Sequence record: OR352939.1
Source of the DNA: Escherichia phage AV109
DNA length: 64,000 nucleotides
Reading direction: 5' to 3' (one strand)
Below, in pieces: positions 22,110 to 47,872 of this stretch. Every line of letters begins with the position of its first letter. The stretch's first letter is position 1. Position numbers and translations under genes: made by a program. The notes below the pieces were generated by a model. It was not told the origin of the DNA, searched no databases, and worked only from the letters and a program-made list of their open reading frames with translations.

Positions 22110-22117
22110 TATAAATA
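22110..22117 (+). promoter_or_regulatory. late promoter TATAAATA for gene 34
   Basis: exact TATAAATA 30 nt upstream of gene 34 ATG, divergent from rnh early promoter. Confidence 0.7.
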
Positions 22118-22147: not shown

Positions 22148-25100
22148 ATGGCCGACATCAAACGTAAGTTCAGAGCCGAAGACGGTCTGGACGCCGGTGG
22201 CGACAAGATTGTTAACGTAGCATTAGCCGACCGTACAGTAGGTACTGATGGCGTAAACGTTGACTTCCTGGTACAAGAAAACACCGTTCAAGTATATGAT
22301 TCTACACGTGGATATAACAAAGGATTTGTTGTTCTTTATGACAACCGTTTATATCAAGCAATAAATGATATCGTGTCTCCTTCCGGGGCATTTAACCTTT
22401 TACAATGGCGTGCAGTTCGTACTGATACACAATGGATAACTGTCGCTTCTGGGACTTATCAACTTTCTTCAGGTGAATCGATTTCGGTTAACACTGGTGC
22501 CGGCAATGATATGGTTTTCACGTTGCCAAATACTCCTGTTGATGGTGATACTGTTGTTTTGGCTGATATTGGTGGAAGAACCGGGACAGTTAAAGTACAG
22601 ATTAACGCGTCTGTACAGAGTATTTTAAACTTTAGAGGTGAACAAGTTCGTACGGTTTTAATGACGCGTCCGCGTTCACAACTATTGTTTGTGTTTAGTA
22701 ATCGTTTGTGGCAGATGTATATTACCGATTATGGTAAAGAATCAATCACTGTTACACCTGCGACACCATATCAAGCACAAGCAAATGATTTTATCGTTCG
22801 TCGTTTTACTAGTGCAGCACCAATCAACATTACACTTCCACGTAATGCTAACAATGGTGATATAATCAGCCTAGTCGATTTAGATAGATTAAACCCACTG
22901 TATCATACAATTGTTAAAACATTTGATGATACAACGTCTATTGGTGAAGTCGGGACTCATATTGCCGAAGGCAGAAATGACTCTGACGCGTTTTTTGTTT
23001 TTGATGCCGCAAATAGTTTATGGCGTATATGGGAAGGCGACCAGAAATCGCGTCTTCGTATTATCCGTGCGGATTCAAATATTCGTCCAAATGAAGAAGT
23101 TCTTATTTTTGGCACAAATAACGCTACAGCCGGAACTATTAATCTTACGCTGCCTTCCGGAATTTTGAGTGGTGACACTGTTAAAATTTCAATGAACTAC
23201 ATGCGTAAAGGCCAAACAGTAAAAATTAAAGCTGCCGAAGGTGATACAATTGCTTCTTCTGTCGCATTACTTCAGTTCCCTAAACGTTCTGAATATCCAC
23301 CTGATGCTCAATGGGTTTCTGTTACTGAACTAGAATTCAATGGCACTACTTCATATGTTCCTGTGTTAGAATTAGCGTATATCGAAGACACTGTTGCTGG
23401 TACACGTTATTGGGTTGTTCAACAAAACGTCCCTACAGTAGAACGTGTTGATGCTGGAACTGATGCTACACGAGCTCGTTTAGGTGTTATTGCTCTTGCT
23501 ACTCAAGCGCAAGCAAATGTTGATTTAGAGAATACTCCAGCTAAAGAAGTGGCTATTACTCCGGAAACATTGGCAAATCGTACAGCAACTGAAGCTCGAC
23601 GTGGTATCGCTAAAATTGCTACAACAGCACAAGTTAACCAGAATTCCACAGCATCATTTGTGGACGATACTATTGTTACGCCTAAAAAACTAAATGAGCG
23701 TACAGCAACTGAAACTCGTCGCGGTCTTGCTGAAATTGCTACTCAGACCGAAACCGATGCTGGTCTTGATGACACAACGATTATTACACCTAAGAAATTG
23801 CAGGCACGTCAGGGTTCTGAAACACTATCGGGTATAGTTAAATATGTATCAACTACTTCTGCTACTCCTGCTGAAACTCGTGGGGCTGCAGGCACTAACG
23901 TTTATAATAAAACCGTAAATAATTTAACTATTTCTCCTAAAGCCCTTGACCAATATAAAGCAACTTATGCTCAACAAGGTGCAGTAATTTTAGCTGTTGA
24001 AAGTGAAGTAATTGCTGGTCAATCCCAAGCAGGTTATTCTCACGCTGTAGTAACTCCTGAAACACTACATAAGAAAACTTCTACTGATGGACGTATTGGT
24101 TTAATTGAAATTGCTACGCAAGCAGAAACTAATGCTGGGACTGATTATACACGTGCAGTAACGCCTAAGACGTTAAATGATAGGAAAGCTACGGAAGGAT
24201 TATCCGGCATAGCCGAACTTGCTACGCAAGTCGAATTTGATACTGGAACTGATGATACTCGTATCTCGACTCCACTGAAAATTAAAACTCATTTTGATTC
24301 TTCTGACCGTACCAGTGTTAATTCTGATTCCGGACTTATTGAAGAAGGAACCTTGTGGAACCATTATACTCTTGATATTTCTAAAGCAAATGAAACACAA
24401 CGTGGTACACTTCGCGTAGCGACCCAGGCAGAATCTAATGCAGGAACTTTAGATGATGTTCTTATTACTCCTAAAAAGCTTTTAGGGACTAAGTCCACTG
24501 AAACGTCTGAAGGCGTAATTAAGGTTGCTACTCAGGCTGAAACTGTAACAGGAACTTCTGCTAATACTGCTGTATCTCCTAAGAATTTAAAATGGATTGT
24601 CCAGAAAGAACCAACATGGGCTGCTACTACAGCAATTCGCGGATTCGTTAAAACTTCATCCGGTTCTATTACATTCGTTGGTAATGATACAGTTGGTTCA
24701 ACACAACCTTTAGAATCATATGAGAAAAATAGCTATGCAGTATCACCATATGAATTAAACCGTGTATTAGCAAATTATTTGCCGTTAAAAGCAAAAGCTG
24801 TAGATAGTAATTTATTGGATGGTCTAGATTCATCTCAGTTCATTCGTAGGGATATTGCACAGACGGTTAATGGTTCACTAACCTTAACCCAACAAACGAA
24901 TCTGAGTGCCCCTCTTGTATCATCTAGTACTGCTACGTTTGGTGGTTCAGTTTCGGCAAATAGTACATTGACTATTTCTAATACGGGAACAGCTACTCGA
25001 CTGATTTTTGAAAAAGGACCTCAGTCCGGAACAAATCCTGCTCAAACGATGACTATCAGAGTTTGGGGAAATGAATTTGGTGGTGGTTCAGATACAACAC

Positions 25101-26023
25101 GTTCTACTGTATTTGAAGTTGGTGATGAAACATCTAATCACTTTTATTCTCAACGTAATAAAGCTGGGAATATAACGTTTAGCATTAATGGTACTGTGAT
25201 GCCAATAAATGTTAACGCTTCAGGCACGTTAAATGCGAATGGTGTAGCAACATTTGGTCGTTCAGTTACAGCCAATGGTGAATTCATTAGCAAGTCTGCA
25301 AATGCTTTTAGAGCAATAAACGGTGATTATGGATTCTTTATTCGTAATGATGCCTCTAATACCTATTTTTTGCTCACTGCAGCCGGTGATCAGACTGGTG
25401 GTTTTAATGGATTACGCCCATTATTAATTAATAATCAATCCGGTCAGATTACAATTGGTGAAGGCTTAATCATCGCCAAAGGTGTTACTATAAATTCAGG
25501 CGGTTTGACTGTTAACTCGAGAATTCGTTCTCAGGGTATTAAAACATCTGATTTATATACTCGTGCGCCAACATCTGATACTGTAGGATTCTGGTCAATC
25601 GATATTAACGATTCAGCCACTTATAACCAGTTCCCAGGTTATTTTAAAATGGTTGAAAAAACTAATGAAGTGACTGGGCTTCCATACTTAGAACGCGGCG
25701 AAGAAGTTAAATCTCCTGGTACATTGACTCAGTTTGGTAATACACTTGATTCACTTTACCAAGATTGGATTACTTATCCAACAACTCCAGAAGCACGTAC
25801 CACTCGCTGGACACGTACATGGCAGAAAACTAAAAATTCTTGGTCAAGTTTTGTTCAGGTATTTGATGGAGGTAACCCTCCTCAACCATCTGATATTGGT
25901 GCTTTACCATCTGATAATGCTACAATGGGGAATCTTACTATTCGTGATTTCTTAAGGATTGGTAATGTCCGCATTATTCCAGACCCTGTGAATAAATCTG
26001 TTAAATTCGAGTGGATTGAATAA
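22148..26023 (+). CDS. 34: long tail fibre proximal subunit gp34
   Basis: 1291 aa; N-terminus matches remembered T4 gp34; internal tandem repeat units. Confidence 0.95.
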   Translation: MADIKRKFRAEDGLDAGGDKIVNVALADRTVGTDGVNVDFLVQENTVQVYDSTRGYNKGFVVLYDNRLYQAINDIVSPSGAFNLLQWRAVRTDTQWITVASGTYQLSSGESISVNTGAGNDMVFTLPNTPVDGDTVVLADIGGRTGTVKVQINASVQSILNFRGEQVRTVLMTRPRSQLLFVFSNRLWQMYITDYGKESITVTPATPYQAQANDFIVRRFTSAAPINITLPRNANNGDIISLVDLDRLNPLYHTIVKTFDDTTSIGEVGTHIAEGRNDSDAFFVFDAANSLWRIWEGDQKSRLRIIRADSNIRPNEEVLIFGTNNATAGTINLTLPSGILSGDTVKISMNYMRKGQTVKIKAAEGDTIASSVALLQFPKRSEYPPDAQWVSVTELEFNGTTSYVPVLELAYIEDTVAGTRYWVVQQNVPTVERVDAGTDATRARLGVIALATQAQANVDLENTPAKEVAITPETLANRTATEARRGIAKIATTAQVNQNSTASFVDDTIVTPKKLNERTATETRRGLAEIATQTETDAGLDDTTIITPKKLQARQGSETLSGIVKYVSTTSATPAETRGAAGTNVYNKTVNNLTISPKALDQYKATYAQQGAVILAVESEVIAGQSQAGYSHAVVTPETLHKKTSTDGRIGLIEIATQAETNAGTDYTRAVTPKTLNDRKATEGLSGIAELATQVEFDTGTDDTRISTPLKIKTHFDSSDRTSVNSDSGLIEEGTLWNHYTLDISKANETQRGTLRVATQAESNAGTLDDVLITPKKLLGTKSTETSEGVIKVATQAETVTGTSANTAVSPKNLKWIVQKEPTWAATTAIRGFVKTSSGSITFVGNDTVGSTQPLESYEKNSYAVSPYELNRVLANYLPLKAKAVDSNLLDGLDSSQFIRRDIAQTVNGSLTLTQQTNLSAPLVSSSTATFGGSVSANSTLTISNTGTATRLIFEKGPQSGTNPAQTMTIRVWGNEFGGGSDTTRSTVFEVGDETSNHFYSQRNKAGNITFSINGTVMPINVNASGTLNANGVATFGRSVTANGEFISKSANAFRAINGDYGFFIRNDASNTYFLLTAAGDQTGGFNGLRPLLINNQSGQITIGEGLIIAKGVTINSGGLTVNSRIRSQGIKTSDLYTRAPTSDTVGFWSIDINDSATYNQFPGYFKMVEKTNEVTGLPYLERGEEVKSPGTLTQFGNTLDSLYQDWITYPTTPEARTTRWTRTWQKTKNSWSSFVQVFDGGNPPQPSDIGALPSDNATMGNLTIRDFLRIGNVRIIPDPVNKSVKFEWIE

Positions 26024-26031
26024 GAGGTATT

Positions 26032-27159
26032 ATGGAAAAATTTATGGCTAAGTTTGGACAAGGATACGTCCAAACGCCATTTTTATCGGAAAGCAATTCA
26101 GTACGATTTAAATTAAGCATAGCGGGCTCTTGCCCGCTATCAACATCTCCTGCTTATATTAAGTTCCAGGATAATCCACTTGGGTCCCAGGTTTTTTCCG
26201 TTGGATTAAACGTTCGTGTAATAAATCCTACAACGGGTGCAGTAGTTGAATCTAAGACATATAATTTCTCTACTGAAAACGACGCCACGTCAAGTGCATT
26301 TGTTACTTTCATGGACACATATGCTTCAAATTTTATATTTGCTCTTGTTACTAACGCTAAAACAAACTTTCCGCCAGAAGTTCTTGCATGGTTTAATAAA
26401 GCCGGAAGTTCTGCTATTCCATTAGCTCAACAAGTTTTAAATATAGTGGACATTTCTTATTCGGCATTTTATATTTCTGGTAAGAATGCTATAGCACTAG
26501 AACATATTAAGTATAGTAATAAGAAAACTTCAACCGACTATAGTACACCACTTGATGTTGTGTACGACACGATCGATGATATTGGTGCTACCGGCTTCCC
26601 TAGTCGTACGTACGAATCGACAGACACATTTTTATCTGCTGTTGGAGGTACTAATAACGAAATTAAAAGGATGCCTACAACATCCCTTATTACACCTCTC
26701 GCTGGGTATAAATTGAAGCCTGGAGATTTCCTTTATATGAAATTCCAACTAATGGCAGATGCTGATTTGTTAGCACAAGGGACGACACGACTTTCTATTC
26801 GTTTCTTTAAATCTCCTTCTACTTCACCTATTTCATTTAAGGATACAAACTTTGATGGGGCTGCAGGTGAATGGAAGATATATGAAGACTACATAGAAAT
26901 TCCTGCCGGTGCTGACGGGTTCACGATTTATTGTTATCGTACGGCCCCAGTCGGGCAAGGCGGATTAAGAAACGTTATATTCACTGAAGTGTCATGTAAT
27001 GGAAGCGTTTCAAAACCTGCTGAGTTTGGTATAAATGGTATTCGTGTAAATTATGTTTCAGAATCTTTAAGTGCCCCAGACATAATGACATTACCTACTC
27101 AATCTTCAACTGATACCGGTAAGGTATTTGGACAAGAATTTAAAGAAGCATCAGAATAA
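26032..27159 (+). CDS. 35: long tail fibre hinge protein gp35
   Basis: 375 aa near-identical to remembered T4 gp35. Confidence 0.92.
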   Translation: MEKFMAKFGQGYVQTPFLSESNSVRFKLSIAGSCPLSTSPAYIKFQDNPLGSQVFSVGLNVRVINPTTGAVVESKTYNFSTENDATSSAFVTFMDTYASNFIFALVTNAKTNFPPEVLAWFNKAGSSAIPLAQQVLNIVDISYSAFYISGKNAIALEHIKYSNKKTSTDYSTPLDVVYDTIDDIGATGFPSRTYESTDTFLSAVGGTNNEIKRMPTTSLITPLAGYKLKPGDFLYMKFQLMADADLLAQGTTRLSIRFFKSPSTSPISFKDTNFDGAAGEWKIYEDYIEIPAGADGFTIYCYRTAPVGQGGLRNVIFTEVSCNGSVSKPAEFGINGIRVNYVSESLSAPDIMTLPTQSSTDTGKVFGQEFKEASE

Positions 27160-27164
27160 ATTTA

Positions 27165-27182
27165 GGGAGACCGAAGTCTCCC
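27165..27182 (+). terminator. hairpin GGGAGACCGAAGTCTCCC + AUUUUUG after gene 35
   Basis: third copy of the 18-nt palindromic element, followed by T-tract and then the gene 36 late promoter. Confidence 0.55.
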
Positions 27183-27189
27183 ATTTTTG

Positions 27190-27197
27190 TATAAATA
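27190..27197 (+). promoter_or_regulatory. late promoter TATAAATA for genes 36-37-38-t
   Basis: exact TATAAATA 25 nt upstream of gene 36 ATG. Confidence 0.7.
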
Positions 27198-27221
27198 TGG
27201 TATACATATAAGGAGACAACT

Positions 27222-27884
27222 ATGGCCGATTTAAAAGCTGGTAGTACAACTGGCGGTGCTGTTATATGGCATCAAGGTAATTTCCCTTTAATGCCAGCAG
27301 GTGATGACGTCCTGTATAAAACGTTTAAACTCTATTCAGAATATAATAAACCACAAGCTGCTGATAATGATTTCGTTTCTAAAGCTAATGGTGGTACTTA
27401 CGCTGCAACTGTTCGATTTAACGAAGGCGTACATGTTCCTACTGTAGGTAGTAGTCAACAGTGTGGTGTTTATCCAGGTAACGGTGATGCAGCTACTTTT
27501 GATATGGCAAATATTGACATCGTTTCGTGGAATGGTATTGGTTTTAAGTCATCACAAGGTTCAGCAGACCGAACTGTTGTTATTAACGCTCGTAATGGTG
27601 ATATTAGTACAAAAGGCGTTGTGACAGCAGTAGGTCAAATAAGAAGTAATGCAGTTGCTCCAGTTGCAGCAAATGATCTCACAAGAAAAGATTATGTTGA
27701 TGGACGAATAAATATTGTTACGGATAACGCAAATTCCCGTGTATTGCGTTCTGGCGATACCATGACTGGTACTTTAACAGCACCAAACTTTTTCTCACAG
27801 AATCCGGCATCCGAGGCTAATCATGTTCCACGATTTGATCAAATCGTAATTAAGGATTCTGTTCAAGATTTCGGCTATTATTAA
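27222..27884 (+). CDS. 36: long tail fibre gp36 (distal hinge connector)
   Basis: 220 aa near-identical to remembered T4 gp36. Confidence 0.92.
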   Translation: MADLKAGSTTGGAVIWHQGNFPLMPAGDDVLYKTFKLYSEYNKPQAADNDFVSKANGGTYAATVRFNEGVHVPTVGSSQQCGVYPGNGDAATFDMANIDIVSWNGIGFKSSQGSADRTVVINARNGDISTKGVVTAVGQIRSNAVAPVAANDLTRKDYVDGRINIVTDNANSRVLRSGDTMTGTLTAPNFFSQNPASEANHVPRFDQIVIKDSVQDFGYY

Positions 27885-27892
27885 GAGGACTT

Positions 27893-30800
27893 ATGGCTAC
27901 ATTAAAACAGATACAATTTAAAAGAAGCAAAGTAGCAGGAGTTAATCCTACTGCAGCACAATTAGCCGAAGGCGAATTAGCGATAAACTTAAAAGATCGA
28001 ACTCTTTTTACTAAAGATGACCTCGGTAATATTATTAGCCTAGGCTTTGCTAAGGGTGGGGATATTAACGGTAATGTAACTCAAACTGGCGATTATTTAC
28101 AAAACGGCACGTATAATCTCAATGGAAATCAGTTTGTTTACGCAGGAAAATACATTGAATTTTTACCTAAAACCACTGGAAATGGCGCTTGGGCTAACCA
28201 ACATTCGAATAAAGCCCCTATCTTTACAGATTTAAGTTCAACTACTTCTGTTTCAGAATACCATCCACTGATTAAACAACGTTATAAAGATGGAACTTTT
28301 TCTGCTGGTACATTAGTAAACGAAGGTAGTTTTAAATTCCATTATATTGATGAAACCGGGACTTCAAAATACTGGACTTTTAATCGAAACGGTAATTTTC
28401 AAGTTGATTCCGGAAGTTTATTAGTATCTAATGGATATTTAGTTACTCAAAGTAATATTGAAACTAAAGCTGGTTCTTTAATTGGTCCTAAAGTTATTAC
28501 CAAAAATATCAATGTGAGTACTAAATCTTGGGACACTAATATTGATACTGCATATGATTTAGTTTCATTACCGACTTGGCACTATACTCCAACCGAAACA
28601 GATTTGGATACTAATGGTATAAACTACCTTCGTAAATTCCGCGGACATGTTTCTTCTGCTATTTTCCATGAAGTTGCTGATGCTCGTTCAGGTAAACCAC
28701 AGAATATTTCGTATTGGACGGGACGTAATGCTGAAGTTTATCAATGGTCTTATACCACAGACGGGCGTATGTCTGTTGCTAATTCGATAGGTATAGGTCT
28801 TGCTGATGTTGGTGACCAAGGACGTTATCCATTGGTTTCGTTTGGTAAAGGTATTGCAATTGGTGACAATGATACTGGTATTAAATGGGTTCGTGACGGC
28901 GTTATTGATTTGATTGCTAACGGTGTTTCGACCGGTACAATAAACAGTACTGGTGTTAATAGTACAAAGAAATTAACAGTTGGGTATAGCCGTGATTCTG
29001 GATCTACTTGGGATTATCCGAATACCAACCAGGCAATGTTCAGCGCTAGAACAGAAGTTGATGGTAATAATAACGGTGATGGTCAAACTCACATTGGTTA
29101 TAGTTCTAATGCTAAGATGTATCATTATTTCCGTGGCGCTGGCCGCATGGCCATCAGCATGGGTGAAGGTCTTATTGTCGAACCAGGAATTCTTGATATT
29201 AAAACCGGTTCAAATTCGTTAAATTTGCGTGCTGATGGTACCATCGCTTCTGTTCAAACGTTAAAACTTAATAATGGATTATATTTTAATGGTGATGGAA
29301 CTAATGCTTCTCTAATTTTTAAAGCAGCTTCAGGTATTGATGGTACTAAGCAAATTTTGTGGGAAGGCGGTACTCGTGCAGGTCAGAACAAAAGTTATGT
29401 GACCGTGAAAGCATGGGGTAACTCATTTAATGCTACTGGTGATAAAGCTCGAGAAACCGTATTTGAGGTTTCTGATGGCCAAGGTTATTATTTCTATTCT
29501 CAACGCGTAGCTCCGACCGGTTCTGAAACTACAGGCCCTGTTGTAACTCAGTTCAATGGACAGGTTAATGCTAGAGGAAGCTTAATAACCGACGGAAGTC
29601 TTAGAGTTAACGGATTAAGCACTCTAGTTGGCAACGTTACAATGAATAATGGATTGTTTGTTCAAGGCGGTTCTTCTATTACTGGACAAGTTAAAATTGG
29701 TGGAACAGCTGATGCATTAAGAATTTGGAATGCTGAATACGGTGCTATTTTCCGTCGTTCTGAAGATAAGCTTTATATTATTCCAACTCCGCAGAATGCT
29801 GGTGAATCAGGTGGTATTTCTAATTTACGTCCGTTCTATATTGCATTAAGTAATGGTAAAGTTTCTATGGATCATGATGTAGATATCGGCGGCGGCAGAT
29901 TTAAAGTAGAAGCTGCTGGAACTACGGCTGGTCAACGCATAACAGTAAATATGGCATCAGATGCTATTAGAATAAATGCTCCAACACAAGAGTCTTCTAA
30001 CTTCATTCAAGGACGTAAAGCAGATGTTCCGAAATGGTATTTAGGTATTGGCGACGGCGGCAACGTCGTTCGTATGCACAGTTACACATATTCACATGGT
30101 ATTGCATTAAACTCTGATTCTGTCGATATTACTAAACCTCTTAAAGTCGGAAATGCCCAACTAGGAACCGATGGCAATATCACGGGCGGTTCCGGTAACT
30201 TTGCTAACCTAAATACCGCATTAAACCGCAAGGTAAATTCAGGATTTGTAACATACGGTGCAACTGCCGGATGGTATAAATTCGCCACAGTAACGATGCC
30301 ACAATCTACTTCTACTGTTTCATTTACTGTAACTGGTGGTAAAGGATTTAATACTGGACTGTTTACACAGTGTGCTATAACAGAAATTGTTCTTCGTACT
30401 GGTAATGACCACCCAATAGGTTTAAACGCGGTGATGTATACCAGAACAGCTGCGGGTTTTACTGATATTGCTGTAGTTAATACCTCAGGAAATACATATG
30501 ATGTCTATGTTGAATCTGGCACTTATGCCAACCAATTAGCTTATACCTGGCATGCAGTTGATAATGCTACCGTAAAAGTTATTGGTGCTTTTGGTCCGAC
30601 TCAAGACCCGGTAGATTCTTTGCCGGTTGATTATGTTAAAGGCCAGGTAGCTAACATGCTTAACAACCTGGTAGACACAGGTAAAGTAAAACGTTATGAA
30701 GCCGATTCTGAAATAGCTATTAATAACCCAACCGGTATTCGTATCAGAAGTAACTATGATAAAACTGGTTCTGTGGCTACAATGTTACGAAATGATGGCG

Positions 30801-31666
30801 GTAGTTTTTATATTCTGTTTACAGATAAAAATGCCACCGATGGCGCAGCAACTGTTAATGGTGATTGGAATAGTAAACGTCCTTTCGCAATTAACTTAAC
30901 AACCGGCGAAGTGATAATGAATAATGGCATAGCTGTTCGCAGCGCTGCTTTATTCTATAATAGCATAAACGTCAAAGATAATGGTTCTATTAACTTTGAT
31001 AAGTCCGGTGCGAACCCAAGAAACATGCGTATATTCCACGCAGGTGATGGTACGCGAGGAAACCGCCTTGAAATTTCTGATGAAACTAACTATATTGCTT
31101 ACTTCCAAAAATTACCTGGTGGTCAAAACCAAGTTTCATTCAATAGTGCTACACTTTCTGGATTAACACAGTGCAATCAATTTGGTGTTAACACAACAAA
31201 CGCACTTGGTGGAAATAGTATAACGTTTGGTGATAATGACACCGGTATTAAGCAAAATGGCGATGGATTATTAGACATATATGCGAACAACGTGCAAGTG
31301 TTCCGTTTCCAAAACGGCGATTTGTACTCATATAAAAATATAAATGCTCCAAACGTTTATATTCGTTCTGATATTCGTTTAAAATCCAACTTTAAGCCTA
31401 TCGAAAATGCACTTGATAAAGTTGAAAAACTTAACGGTGTCATTTACGATAAAGCTGAATACATCGGTGGAGAGGCAATTGAAACTGAAGCGGGTATTGT
31501 GGCTCAAACGTTACAAGACGTTTTACCAGAAGCTGTCCGTGAAACAGAAGATAGCAAGGGTAATAAAATACTCACTGTTTCTTCTCAAGCCCAGATTGCT
31601 CTTCTGGTTGAAGCTGTGAAAACACTTTCTTCTCGTGTAAAAGAACTTGAATCTAAACTTATGTAA
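27893..31666 (+). CDS. 37: long tail fibre distal subunit gp37 with C-terminal intramolecular chaperone-like domain
   Basis: 1257 aa; N-terminal ~620 aa match remembered T4 gp37; C-terminus carries SDIRLK motif typical of self-cleaving chaperone domains (T2-type). Confidence 0.9.
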   Translation: MATLKQIQFKRSKVAGVNPTAAQLAEGELAINLKDRTLFTKDDLGNIISLGFAKGGDINGNVTQTGDYLQNGTYNLNGNQFVYAGKYIEFLPKTTGNGAWANQHSNKAPIFTDLSSTTSVSEYHPLIKQRYKDGTFSAGTLVNEGSFKFHYIDETGTSKYWTFNRNGNFQVDSGSLLVSNGYLVTQSNIETKAGSLIGPKVITKNINVSTKSWDTNIDTAYDLVSLPTWHYTPTETDLDTNGINYLRKFRGHVSSAIFHEVADARSGKPQNISYWTGRNAEVYQWSYTTDGRMSVANSIGIGLADVGDQGRYPLVSFGKGIAIGDNDTGIKWVRDGVIDLIANGVSTGTINSTGVNSTKKLTVGYSRDSGSTWDYPNTNQAMFSARTEVDGNNNGDGQTHIGYSSNAKMYHYFRGAGRMAISMGEGLIVEPGILDIKTGSNSLNLRADGTIASVQTLKLNNGLYFNGDGTNASLIFKAASGIDGTKQILWEGGTRAGQNKSYVTVKAWGNSFNATGDKARETVFEVSDGQGYYFYSQRVAPTGSETTGPVVTQFNGQVNARGSLITDGSLRVNGLSTLVGNVTMNNGLFVQGGSSITGQVKIGGTADALRIWNAEYGAIFRRSEDKLYIIPTPQNAGESGGISNLRPFYIALSNGKVSMDHDVDIGGGRFKVEAAGTTAGQRITVNMASDAIRINAPTQESSNFIQGRKADVPKWYLGIGDGGNVVRMHSYTYSHGIALNSDSVDITKPLKVGNAQLGTDGNITGGSGNFANLNTALNRKVNSGFVTYGATAGWYKFATVTMPQSTSTVSFTVTGGKGFNTGLFTQCAITEIVLRTGNDHPIGLNAVMYTRTAAGFTDIAVVNTSGNTYDVYVESGTYANQLAYTWHAVDNATVKVIGAFGPTQDPVDSLPVDYVKGQVANMLNNLVDTGKVKRYEADSEIAINNPTGIRIRSNYDKTGSVATMLRNDGGSFYILFTDKNATDGAATVNGDWNSKRPFAINLTTGEVIMNNGIAVRSAALFYNSINVKDNGSINFDKSGANPRNMRIFHAGDGTRGNRLEISDETNYIAYFQKLPGGQNQVSFNSATLSGLTQCNQFGVNTTNALGGNSITFGDNDTGIKQNGDGLLDIYANNVQVFRFQNGDLYSYKNINAPNVYIRSDIRLKSNFKPIENALDKVEKLNGVIYDKAEYIGGEAIETEAGIVAQTLQDVLPEAVRETEDSKGNKILTVSSQAQIALLVEAVKTLSSRVKELESKLM

Positions 31667-31667
31667 A

Positions 31668-31685
31668 AGAGGGCTTCGGCCCTCT
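31668..31685 (+). other. stable hairpin AGAGGGC-UUCG-GCCCUCU between genes 37 and 38
   Basis: 7-bp stem with C(UUCG)G loop immediately after gp37 stop and before gp38 SD. Confidence 0.5.
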
Positions 31686-31696
31686 AAGGATTTTTA

Positions 31697-32488
31697 ATGG
31701 CAATTGTAGGTGTTCCTGGCTGGATTGGCGAATCTGCCGTAAATGAAACTGGACAACGTTGGATGGATGCTGCAATGAAAGCAGTTCGTGTTTCAGTTCC
31801 TGGTTGGATGAGTTCAATGGCTGGGCAATCTAAAGAGATTCATTATAGCATTGGTGCTAGCAATTCTTACAATAAAGACACACTAATAAACTGGATAAAA
31901 GCCCAAGGAAGCACTCCTGTTGTTATTACTATTACAGGAAATATTGTTTCTCAATCTACCGGTGTTCCATGCTTAGATTTTCCTAGCTCATTAACTAATG
32001 CATATGTTACCTTAAATATTAATAGTGGGGTTCATGTATTAGGTCGGGGAGGAAATGGCGGAAGTAACTCTGCTGGCGGAGCAGGAGGAACTGCAATAAA
32101 TAACGGAATTGGAACTCGTTTAAGAATAAACAATAATGGTATTATTGGTGGCGGCGGAGGTGGCGGCGCTGGTGCTAGATACCATCCTTTCCCTCAAATG
32201 GATATGATATTTGGTGGCGGCGGAGGTCGTCCATTTGGCGCAGCTGGCGCAGCAGGAGGTGGCGCAGCGGCAGCATCCGCTGGTACAATTTCTGCTCCTG
32301 GTAAAGGTACTGTTTCTGGGGTTCACTATGGAGGAAATGGTGGAGATTTGGGAGCTGCTGGCAAATCTTCATATATTCAAGGTGGTACTGGAGGAACTGT
32401 TCACTCGGGTGGTGCAGCAGGTAAAGCTGTTACTGGTAATGCTCCAACTTGGACTAAAGTTGGTACAATATACGGTTCAAGAGTATAA
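31697..32488 (+). CDS. 38: gp38 tail-fibre tip adhesin (T2-type, glycine-rich motifs flanking variable segments)
   Basis: 263 aa; conserved N-terminus MAIVGVPGWIGESAVNETGQRWMDAAM, poly-Gly tracts (GGGGGGGAGA, GGGGG), C-terminal NAPTWTKVGTIYGSRV. Confidence 0.85.
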   Translation: MAIVGVPGWIGESAVNETGQRWMDAAMKAVRVSVPGWMSSMAGQSKEIHYSIGASNSYNKDTLINWIKAQGSTPVVITITGNIVSQSTGVPCLDFPSSLTNAYVTLNINSGVHVLGRGGNGGSNSAGGAGGTAINNGIGTRLRINNNGIIGGGGGGGAGARYHPFPQMDMIFGGGGGRPFGAAGAAGGGAAAASAGTISAPGKGTVSGVHYGGNGGDLGAAGKSSYIQGGTGGTVHSGGAAGKAVTGNAPTWTKVGTIYGSRV

Positions 32489-32519: not shown

Positions 32520-33179
32520 ATGGCAACACCAAAAGTGGCATTTTCACCTAGTGATATTCTATTTGGGTTGCTAGATCGTATTTTCAAAGATAACGCTACT
32601 GGAAAGGTTTTAATGTCCCGAGTAGCGGTAATTATTCTTTTGTTCCTAATGGCACTAATATGGTACAAAGGAAGTATTTTGCTGGATTATTATGTAAGAG
32701 CTAAGTATGATACTTATACTGAAATAATCCAAAAAGAACGAGCTTTACGTTTTGAATCTGCGGCTCTAGAACAACTGCAAATAGTTCATATCTCATCTGG
32801 TGCAGATTTTAGTGCTGTGTATTCTTTCAGACCTAAAAACTTAAATTATTTTGTCGACCTTATAGCTTATGAAGGCAAACTACCTAGCACAATTTCTGAA
32901 AAGTCCCTTGGCGGATTCCCGGTGGATAAAACGGCCAATGAATATATAATTCATTTAAGTGGCCGTCATTTCTCATCTAAATCAGAATTTGCATTTTTGC
33001 CTACAAAATCTAAGACTGCCGAACTTTCTTATATGTATAGTTGTCCATACTTTAATTTGGATAACATCTATGCTGGAACTGTGACGATGTATTGGTATAA
33101 GGGGAGTAATATACTTGAGGAAGATCGCTTAGCGGCTATATGCAACCAAGCGATCCGAATACTAGGAAGGGCTAAATAA
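32520..33179 (+). CDS. t: holin T
   Basis: 219 aa near-identical to remembered T4 holin (SFSPSDILFG, one TM segment, large periplasmic domain). Confidence 0.92.
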   Translation: MATPKVAFSPSDILFGLLDRIFKDNATGKVLMSRVAVIILLFLMALIWYKGSILLDYYVRAKYDTYTEIIQKERALRFESAALEQLQIVHISSGADFSAVYSFRPKNLNYFVDLIAYEGKLPSTISEKSLGGFPVDKTANEYIIHLSGRHFSSKSEFAFLPTKSKTAELSYMYSCPYFNLDNIYAGTVTMYWYKGSNILEEDRLAAICNQAIRILGRAK

Positions 33180-47856: not shown

Positions 47857-47872
47857 AAGGGCCGAAGCCCTT
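47857..47872 (-). terminator. hairpin AAGGGC-UUCG-GCCCUU + UUUUG overlapping stop of upstream ORF
   Basis: 6-bp stem, UUCG loop, U-tract. Confidence 0.5.

Follow-up and report, generated by a model that had tools for sequence, protein, structure and literature searches.

The locus at positions 27893-32488 of our window (the whole 64,000-nucleotide stretch of DNA that was analysed) raises the question of which kind of receptor-binding tip is encoded by its two genes, gene 37 for the distal subunit of the long tail fibre (gp37) and gene 38 (gp38), and which bacterial receptor that tip recognises. In a megablast search of 50,697 phage records, the locus matched, over its full length and at 100% identity, Escherichia phage AV114 (OR352944.1; position in the window equals the record position minus 32000), whose record gives Straboviridae, Tevenvirinae, Mosigvirus, with pig waste in Denmark as the source. 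The two open reading frames (ORFs) proposed in an earlier reading of this DNA, hereafter the original prediction, were exact in position and length (Table 1), and that of gp38 starts 30 nucleotides (nt) past the gp37 stop and ends 31 nt ahead of the start of holin gene t. The results described below indicate that the locus very probably encodes the tip with which the long tail fibre of AV114 binds its receptor, organised in the style of phages T2, T6 and S16, and we found no sequence feature that contradicts this explanation.

Profile searches placed gp38 in the family of tail-fibre adhesins, with Gp38_N (PF21721) covering amino acids (aa) 1-42 (E=7.3e-18, 64.7 bits, cut-off 25), GP38 (PF05268) covering aa 47-263 (E=1.8e-69, 234.4 bits, cut-off 25), and PHROG 2056, annotated 'tail fiber protein; host specificity', matching at E=1.8e-101. 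The protein aligns over its full length with the crystal structure of the adhesin of Salmonella phage S16 (6F45_D; E=3.7e-48, ~50% identity) and also matches the structure of a GFP-gp38 fusion (9V85; E=8.5e-32); given the identity to 6F45_D, a polyglycine-II sandwich fold is the expected one. In the 6F45_D alignment, W9, W22 and W37 of the N-terminal domain coincide with Trp residues of S16 gp38, which according to the account given in PMC7917993 act as prongs docking the gp37 tip in S16. Both the size of gp38 and its place between gene 37 and holin t fit the adhesin family (~250-265 aa). We compared 10 reference phages and 11 IMG/VR relatives (58-72% identical), which together represent 19 distinct gp38 sequences. 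In this alignment both termini are conserved, and hypervariable segments are interspersed between conserved glycine-rich motifs in the specificity domain. The glycine content of the AV114 protein is 23% overall and 33% in aa 120-263, and the GC content of the DNA climbs to 50-54% at 32000-32450 because of the Gly and Ala codons. Together, the Pfam families, the 6F45_D match and the 19-sequence alignment uphold the proposal of a T2-type, adhesin-capped arrangement in which a glycine-rich gp38 has conserved termini.

Protein identity to the gp38 of AV114 was 100% for AV115, 99.2% for Phaginator, 98.5% for Bas43 (TadeuszReichstein), 97.7% for RB18, 96.6% for TB004, 90% for Krischvirus kaaroe, 63.1% for T2, 55.6% for T6 and 49.6% for S16. 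The adhesin gene of Krischvirus kaaroe (L012, 4986-5771) does not adjoin gene 37, and its product is ~96% identical to the AV114 protein over aa 46-263 and just 28/43 over aa 1-45. It looks as if the specificity part of gp38 has moved between genera with the attachment end matched to the resident fibre. On the opposite strand, two minus-strand ORFs of 65-68 aa (32120-32372) overlap the glycine-rich part of gene 38; these are most likely by-products of a stop-poor GGN/GCN composition and not genes.

The original prediction had also described the C-terminus of gp37 as a domain with the SDIRLK motif of self-cleaving intramolecular chaperones. We found that gp37 belongs to PHROG 1699, long tail fiber protein distal subunit (E=2.6e-296), and is labelled 'tail fiber' in OR352944.1. 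Its Pfam matches are Gp34_trimer (aa 514-650), gp37_trimer (aa 691-765) and Peptidase_S74, the "chaperone of endosialidase" (PF13884; aa 1159-1216, E=2.5e-15, 56.9 bits, cut-off 22). SDIRLK occupies aa 1159-1164 (nt 31367-31384), at the start of the S74 match and 99 residues short of the C-terminus. Residues 1103-1255 align with the distal subunit of the S16 long tail fibre (PDB 6F45_A, E=5.3e-14 with a sub-query), and the S74 part also aligns with the auto-processing domain of human MYRF (7DC3). In these alignments SDIRLK of AV114 corresponds to SDRRIK of S16 and (A)DLRAK of MYRF, and the Ser1159/Lys1164 pair fits the S-D-x-R-x-K catalytic motif. A motif of the SDxRxK type was kept in all nine T2-type gp37 proteins examined (with the variants SDSRLK in T6 and SDRRIK in S16), and was absent from the gp37 of T4 and of the T4-type Mosigvirus SHSML-52-1. 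The complete PNVYIR/SDIRLK site with its 99-aa tail is common to T2, RB18, Bas43, Phaginator, TB004 and AV115. The S74 profile match and the alignments to S16 and MYRF therefore confirm the C-terminal processing domain, which is evident by sequence; the corresponding structure predictions were unusable, since single-sequence AlphaFold2 gave models too poor for use both for gp37 aa 1090-1257 (pLDDT, the predicted local distance difference test score, of 49) and for gp38 (pLDDT 33).

The passage of PMC7917993 that quotes Dunne et al. 2018 gives the cleavage site of S16 gp37 as DLNVS^SDRRIKK and states that release of the chaperone uncovers the docking surface for gp38. By alignment with this site, the cut in AV114 gp37 is predicted between Arg1158 and Ser1159 (…APNVYIR^SDIRLK…), and would leave 1158 aa as the mature chain while releasing the last 99 aa; gp38 is predicted to dock on the C-terminus formed in this way, ...NVYIR.

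With regard to the receptor, Tsx dependence of AV114 was established by published experiment: from plating on receptor-deletion mutants of E. coli ECOR4, Vitt et al. 2024 (PMC10844046) reported Tsx recognition by both AV114 and AV115. Tsx is likewise the primary receptor of Bas43 in the BASEL table (PMC8594841 supplement), and gp38 proteins that recognise Tsx share a characteristic set of hypervariable segments (Trojet et al.). Family membership and the published Tsx assignment support the proposed role of gp38 as the adhesin that governs receptor specificity. Two checks named in the original prediction, alignment of gp38 with the T2 and T6 adhesins and plating on receptor mutants, had already been published for AV114 (PMC10844046).

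These observations can be combined into a mechanism modelled on S16 and T2. Genes 36, 37 and 38 would probably be transcribed together late in infection from the TATAAATA promoter at 27190, to judge from its consensus. The last 99 residues of the 1257-aa gp37 precursor, the Peptidase_S74 chaperone, would assist trimerisation of the fibre end, as in S16 and T2, and by homology would then cleave themselves off between Arg1158 and Ser1159 through the Ser1159/Lys1164 pair. Cleavage would expose the ...NVYIR tip, onto which one gp38 would dock by its N-terminal domain with Trp9, Trp22 and Trp37 as prongs, as the S16 structure suggests. The C-terminal polyglycine scaffold of gp38 would then present the hypervariable loops to Tsx, the outer-membrane nucleoside channel, in the manner proposed for S16 and T2.

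To trace the origin of the module, nucleotide identity to eleven reference loci was tabulated in sliding windows of 150 nt (Table 1). The mosaic map rests on this nucleotide table, as a whole-protein blastp of gp37 against Bas43 missed a match at aa 750-1040 that a sub-query recovered. Flanks on both sides, from 26000 to 30225 and from 32495 onward, are mostly 95-99% identical to SHSML-52-1, confirming the Mosigvirus backbone. At the protein level, gp37 is 92% identical to SHSML-52-1 over aa 1-828; over aa 1-662 it is 47% identical to T4 and 53% to T2, and the description of its N-terminal half as T4-like holds just loosely. Identity to SHSML-52-1 falls to 81-91% at 28850-29150, where Phaginator and TB004 are about equal (77-85%), and this patch suggests a small additional exchange.

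A conserved motif marks the left crossover point. Its core, GNITGGSGNFANLN, is common to T4, T2, SHSML-52-1, RB18, Bas43, TB004 and AV115, and directly past it the T4-type gp37 runs into the collar (…SLKTDI.SSYPIGAPIPWP…), whereas the T2-type gp37 reads …LNRKVNSGF.TYGATAGWYKFATVT…. In junction-spanning megablast searches, Mosigvirus matches stopped at 30225 and Bas43-like Tequatrovirus matches started at 30164; among the 50,697 phage records, this left junction and the right junction (gp38 joined to a Mosigvirus holin) were both present only in AV114 and AV115. Compared to AV114, AV115 has an identical gp38 protein and near-identical flanks but only 68-77% nucleotide identity at 30200-31550, where it resembles Phaginator (85%) and Bas43 (83%) more, and its gp37 is 1297 aa long as against 1257 aa. 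Because AV115 differs in this interval despite sharing gp38 and flanks, the cassette itself has been reshuffled internally too, and its gp37 portion in AV114 is a patchwork of segments resembling those of Tequatroviruses. Judged by these identities, gp37 aa ~776-1257 and gp38 (nt ~30218-32488) together form a foreign T2-type cassette of ~2.3 kb set in a backbone of Mosigvirus origin, with one crossover at the gp37 motif GNITGGSGNFANLN and the other where gp38 meets the holin; sister Mosigviruses have a tip of T4 type at this position. Exchange at conserved motifs of the distal fibre locus is the mode of adhesin swapping attributed to Tétart et al. 1996/1998 in the summary given by PMC3157838. 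The sliding identity table and the protein comparisons thus support mosaicism of the module with respect to T4, and extend it to the module's own genomic backbone; the mosaic map, like the domain content, the processing motif and the family memberships, is read from the sequence itself.

The original prediction had singled out 32148-32235 as a GGN simple repeat and a likely site of slippage or recombination. Glycine accounts for 13 of the 30 codons in this interval, whose translation is GGGGGGGAGARYHPFPQMDMIFGGGGGRPF, and the interval contains two short glycine runs, at 32147-32167 (7 codons) and 32213-32227 (5 codons), with 15 non-Gly codons between them. The first run uses mixed codons (GGT GGC GGC GGA GGT GGC GGC), and Tandem Repeats Finder reported only weak arrays at 32146-32174 (period 12, 2.4 copies, score 44) and 32236-32253 (period 9, 2 copies, score 36). 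A scan of the gp38 gene found no trinucleotide in at least three perfect tandem copies and no mononucleotide run of at least six. The description as a simple repeat therefore does not hold. A 17-nt sequence, TTGGTGGCGGCGGAGGT, does recur exactly as a direct repeat (32145 and 32211), with the copies 66 nt apart, in frame and spanning the glycine runs. It is shared with AV115 and Bas43 only, RB18 having one copy; since two copies occur only in these three phages, the repeat is not a conserved device. Across the 19 distinct gp38 sequences, the first glycine block is ungapped and fixed in position (7-9 Gly, with G/A substitutions), the second run has five glycines in 16 of the sequences and four in the other 3, and all other indels fall in hypervariable segments. 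Beyond the four-glycine second run in those three proteins, the length polymorphism that had been anticipated for the glycine runs was not seen in this set.

Alternative explanations of the locus were weighed against these data. In a T4-type arrangement, gp38 would be an assembly chaperone absent from the virion and the gp37 tip would bind the receptor. Such an arrangement is present in close Mosigvirus relatives such as SHSML-52-1, and the GenBank record OR352944.1 names the AV114 gp38 (WPK34987.1) 'tail assembly protein', which is the role of T4 gp38. However, blastp returned no match between AV114 gp38 and the gp38 of T4 or SHSML-52-1 at E<=10, which is the opposite of what a chaperone-type gp38 should give, and the protein instead matches PF05268 and the full length of the S16 adhesin structure. 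Furthermore, the alignment of gp37 with T4 and SHSML-52-1 breaks after aa ~775-828, and past aa ~775 the protein has no T4-type similarity and no collar and needle region. We consider a T4-type arrangement extremely improbable, and the chaperone reading of gp38 was rejected on the blastp result and refuted by the sequence. Since gp38 belongs to the adhesin family and has no T4-type match, its GenBank label is wrong and carried over from T4 nomenclature. RB18 and several other records label a T2-type gp38 'distal long tail fiber assembly catalyst', which is misleading. If gp38 is accepted as an adhesin, it could still have strict T2 specificity and recognise FadL and/or OmpF, as over its whole length it is closer to T2 (63% identity) than to T6 (56%) and the AV114 paper found it most like T2 gp38 by alignment and groups it with T2 (PMC10844046). 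The excess of T2 identity, however, comes from the attachment domain and linker (aa 1-115), where 87/115 residues are identical to T2 and 54/115 to T6. In the specificity domain (aa 116-263) the relation is inverted, with 77/145 identical to T2 and 91/146 to T6, and in the first hypervariable loop, between the glycine runs (aa 158-172), the counts are 1/15 and 8/15, the loop reading RYHPFPQMDMIF in AV114 and YYSPFPQMRLTF in T6. By this segment-wise comparison, gp38 is T2-like where it would grip the fibre and T6-like where it would meet the cell, and the T6-like specificity domain explains the mismatch between the T2-like overall identity and the Tsx receptor. This accords with the set of hypervariable segments that Trojet et al. 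described for Tsx-recognising gp38 proteins. With the published plating of AV114 and AV115 and the Tsx dependence of Bas43 also against it, specificity for FadL or OmpF is highly improbable and was rejected; the epithet 'T2-type' stands for the architecture of the module and fails for its specificity.

Two further alternatives concern how specificity varies. The glycine-codon tracts could form a contingency locus in which replication slippage alters tract length and thereby switches or diversifies receptor binding. The local density of Gly codons and the in-frame 17-nt direct repeat with its 66-nt spacing would suit such a locus, but the mixed codons, the lack of perfect trinucleotide repeats and homopolymers in the gene, and the near-constant glycine blocks, with indels placed in the hypervariable segments instead, speak against it. 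Moreover, according to published deletion analysis, T6 gp38 tolerates the loss of none of its glycine-rich motifs (PMC3157838). Because there is no perfect DNA repeat, and because every one of these motifs is essential in T6, slippage-driven variation was rejected as very improbable; of the two processes originally suggested, homologous recombination at the conserved glycine-rich motifs, a process already published, stays plausible. The distal shaft of gp37 (aa ~776-1100), on the other hand, could contribute to host range alongside gp38 as a second determinant, perhaps by way of a co-receptor or an altered fibre geometry. AV114 and AV115 share an identical gp38 and have ~100% identical flanks, gene 37 is just 68-77% identical between them at 30200-31550, and their published host ranges differ, covering 29 and 33 extended-spectrum beta-lactamase (ESBL) strains, respectively, with partly different sequence types. 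Nevertheless, there may be differences elsewhere in the two genomes, defence systems and O-antigens have a strong influence on which wild strains are infected, Tsx is required by both phages (PMC10844046), and Pfam and solved-structure sequence searches detected no receptor-binding fold in aa ~776-1100. A contribution of the shaft to host range is therefore unlikely, if with a small chance of being correct, and there is a somewhat slimmer chance that the stretch of gp37 between GNITGGSGNFANLN and the chaperone domain (aa ~776-1100) is an independently exchangeable second module of specificity or geometry. If it were, this shaft module would tune host range atop the Tsx-binding gp38 and would account for the difference in strain sets between AV114 and AV115.

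The interpretation of the locus as a receptor-binding tip module acquired as a cassette also has points that weigh against it. The module had been described as probably setting the host range, and gp38 is not the sole determinant of it, because AV114 and AV115 have identical gp38 proteins and yet somewhat different host ranges. Self-cleavage, gp38 docking and stoichiometry in AV114 are proposed by analogy with S16 and T2. The folds are assigned from homology to solved structures, which is strong, and the AlphaFold2 models, with pLDDT values of 33 and 49, add nothing to it. Transfer from Tequatrovirus to Mosigvirus is the direction suggested by which relatives match, and the cassette may circulate within the genus Mosigvirus, because several Mosigviruses carry gp38 adhesins and T4-type and adhesin-type tips coexist in the genus (PMC10844046, PMC12032242).

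Table 1. Genes, domains and similarity segments of the long-tail-fibre locus, in window coordinates.
Feature	Position	Strand	Basis or closest relative
gp34	22148-26023		T-even long-tail-fibre block
gp35	26032-27159		T-even long-tail-fibre block
gp36	27222-27884		T-even long-tail-fibre block
Gene 37, long tail fibre distal subunit, 1257-aa precursor	27893-31666	+	ORF
gp37 N-terminal and shaft part, ~aa 1-778, Mosigvirus backbone type	27893-30225	+	Nucleotide identity to SHSML-52-1
Conserved motif TDGNITGGSGNFANLNT, gp37 aa 759-775, left crossover point	30167-30217	+	Motif comparison
gp37 distal shaft and tip, T2-type, aa 776-1158	30218-31366	+	Unmatched by gp37 of T4-type Mosigviruses
Intramolecular chaperone / Peptidase_S74 domain, aa 1159-1257, 99 aa	31367-31663	+	Pfam PF13884
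Intergenic C(UUCG)G hairpin, gp37 stop to gp38 ribosome-binding site	31668-31685	+	7-bp stem, UUCG loop
Gene 38, tail-fibre tip adhesin, 263 aa	31697-32488	+	ORF
gp38 N-terminal attachment domain, aa 1-42, W9/W22/W37	31697-31822	+	Gp38_N
gp38 glycine-rich specificity domain, aa 116-263	32042-32485	+	Alignment of 19 distinct gp38
Two poly-Gly runs around a non-glycine stretch with hypervariable loop AGARYHPFPQMDMIF	32147-32227	+	Translation
Holin t	32520-33179		T-even long-tail-fibre block
Similarity segment: gp35, gp36, gp37 nt 1-2333	26000-30225		Mosigvirus SHSML-52-1, mostly 95-99% (81-91% at 28850-29150 and in a few other windows); 57-89% to T4/T2/T6 (96% in one gp34-end window)
Similarity segment	30200-30650		Bas43, 91-95%
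Similarity segment	30650-30950		RB18/TB004, 86-99%
Similarity segment	30950-31250		<=87% to any reference fetched
Similarity segment: tip and chaperone domain	31250-31700		T2/Bas43/RB18/TB004, 95-100%
Similarity segment: gene 38			Bas43/Phaginator/RB18, 93-100% by window, 96-98% over the gene
Similarity segment: right after the gp38 stop	from 32495		SHSML-52-1, 98-99%; ~67-86% to Tequatroviruses

The intergenic hairpin has a perfect stem (AGAGGGC-UUCG-GCCCUCU; -13.4 kcal/mol, z=-2.07) and was flagged as terminator-like. Its 12-nt core, GGGCTTCGGCCC, was found at the junction of genes 37 and 38 in T4, T2, AV115, Phaginator, Bas43, RB18, TB004 and two IMG/VR contigs; because these include both T4-type and T2-type phages, the core is retained whichever tip cassette is present. 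The window contains two copies of it, the second at 47859-47870 on the minus strand, against zero expected by chance. Exact copies of the T4 late-promoter consensus TATAAATA were located at 27190, before gene 36, and at 22110, before gene 34. The consensus at 27190 belongs to a unit, GTATAAATATG, that is repeated in tandem (1.9 copies; 27189-27209, plus strand) immediately ahead of gene 36, and it is the sole exact consensus copy inside that unit. Matches resembling sigma-70 promoters in the region reflect consensus only and were not accepted as functional, since the genes are late.

Downstream of holin t lie asiA and arn/motA genes on the opposite strand. Upstream of gene 36, gp35 carries a match to the Pfam family ILEI, 'Interleukin-like EMT inducer' (PF15711; aa 58-129, 29.2 bits, cut-off 27), which is marginally over threshold and unexpected in a fibre hinge protein. 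The isolation host of AV114 is E. coli ESBL056 in the GenBank record and ESBL197 in Table 1 of PMC10844046, where ESBL56 is listed for AV113, a bookkeeping discrepancy.

The range of bacteria to which AV114 can adsorb is decided by this module, and for this reason AV114 was chosen as the "Tsx" member of published biocontrol cocktails (PMC10844046). It also demonstrates that overall gp38 identity can mislead on the receptor, being T2-like as a whole with T6-like loops and Tsx as the receptor. The precisely located crossovers illustrate how a tip of T4 type can give way to a T2-type cassette within one genus, and they offer natural places to cut when fibre swaps are engineered. These practical lessons are modest and current understanding is unchanged by the analysis, the phage, its adhesin cassette type, its receptor and the mode of recombination all being already published. 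The remaining point, the contribution of the distal gp37 shaft to the difference in host range between AV114 and AV115, is minor.

Compared to known systems, the module is closest in its parts to several different phages. SHSML-52-1 is 95-99% identical up to gp37 aa ~775 and again from the holin onward, but it has, like T4, a collar and needle gp37 tip without S74 and a 183-aa gp38 chaperone where AV114 has the adhesin cassette. The reverse applies to the Tsx-dependent Tequatroviruses Bas43, Phaginator, Kha5h and RB18, which have nearly the same gp38 (97.7-99.2% in protein; 96-98% over the gene in Bas43, Phaginator and RB18), whereas their gp37 shafts and flanks, including the holin and gp36, are ~67-88% identical to AV114 at the nucleotide level. 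Salmonella phage S16 (PDB 6F45) has a gp38 that aligns over its full length, including the three Trp and all glycine-rich blocks, and a gp37 C-terminus that aligns over the cleavage site and the chaperone domain; it differs in having Salmonella OmpC as receptor, different and shorter gp38 loops, DLNVS instead of NVYIR before the cleavage site, and a gp37 of 749 aa instead of 1257 aa. T2 (MH751506) has the same gene order, 36-37-38-t, the same 99-aa S74 tail behind the PNVYIR/SDIRLK site and the same C(UUCG)G intergenic hairpin. The last 167 aa of its gp37 (AV114 aa 1091-1257) are 94.6% identical, and in gp38 aa 1-45 it matches AV114 at 43/45 residues, against 30/45 for T6. T2 departs from AV114 in the rest of gp38 (63% overall, 1/15 in the first hypervariable loop), in gp37 aa 1-662 (53%), in its receptor (FadL/OmpF against Tsx) and in its backbone, that of AV114 being Mosigvirus and not Tequatrovirus. 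The gp37 of T6 is largely unrelated to that of AV114 save at both ends, but T6 gp38 has a specificity domain 62% identical to that of AV114, a related first hypervariable loop and the same receptor, Tsx.

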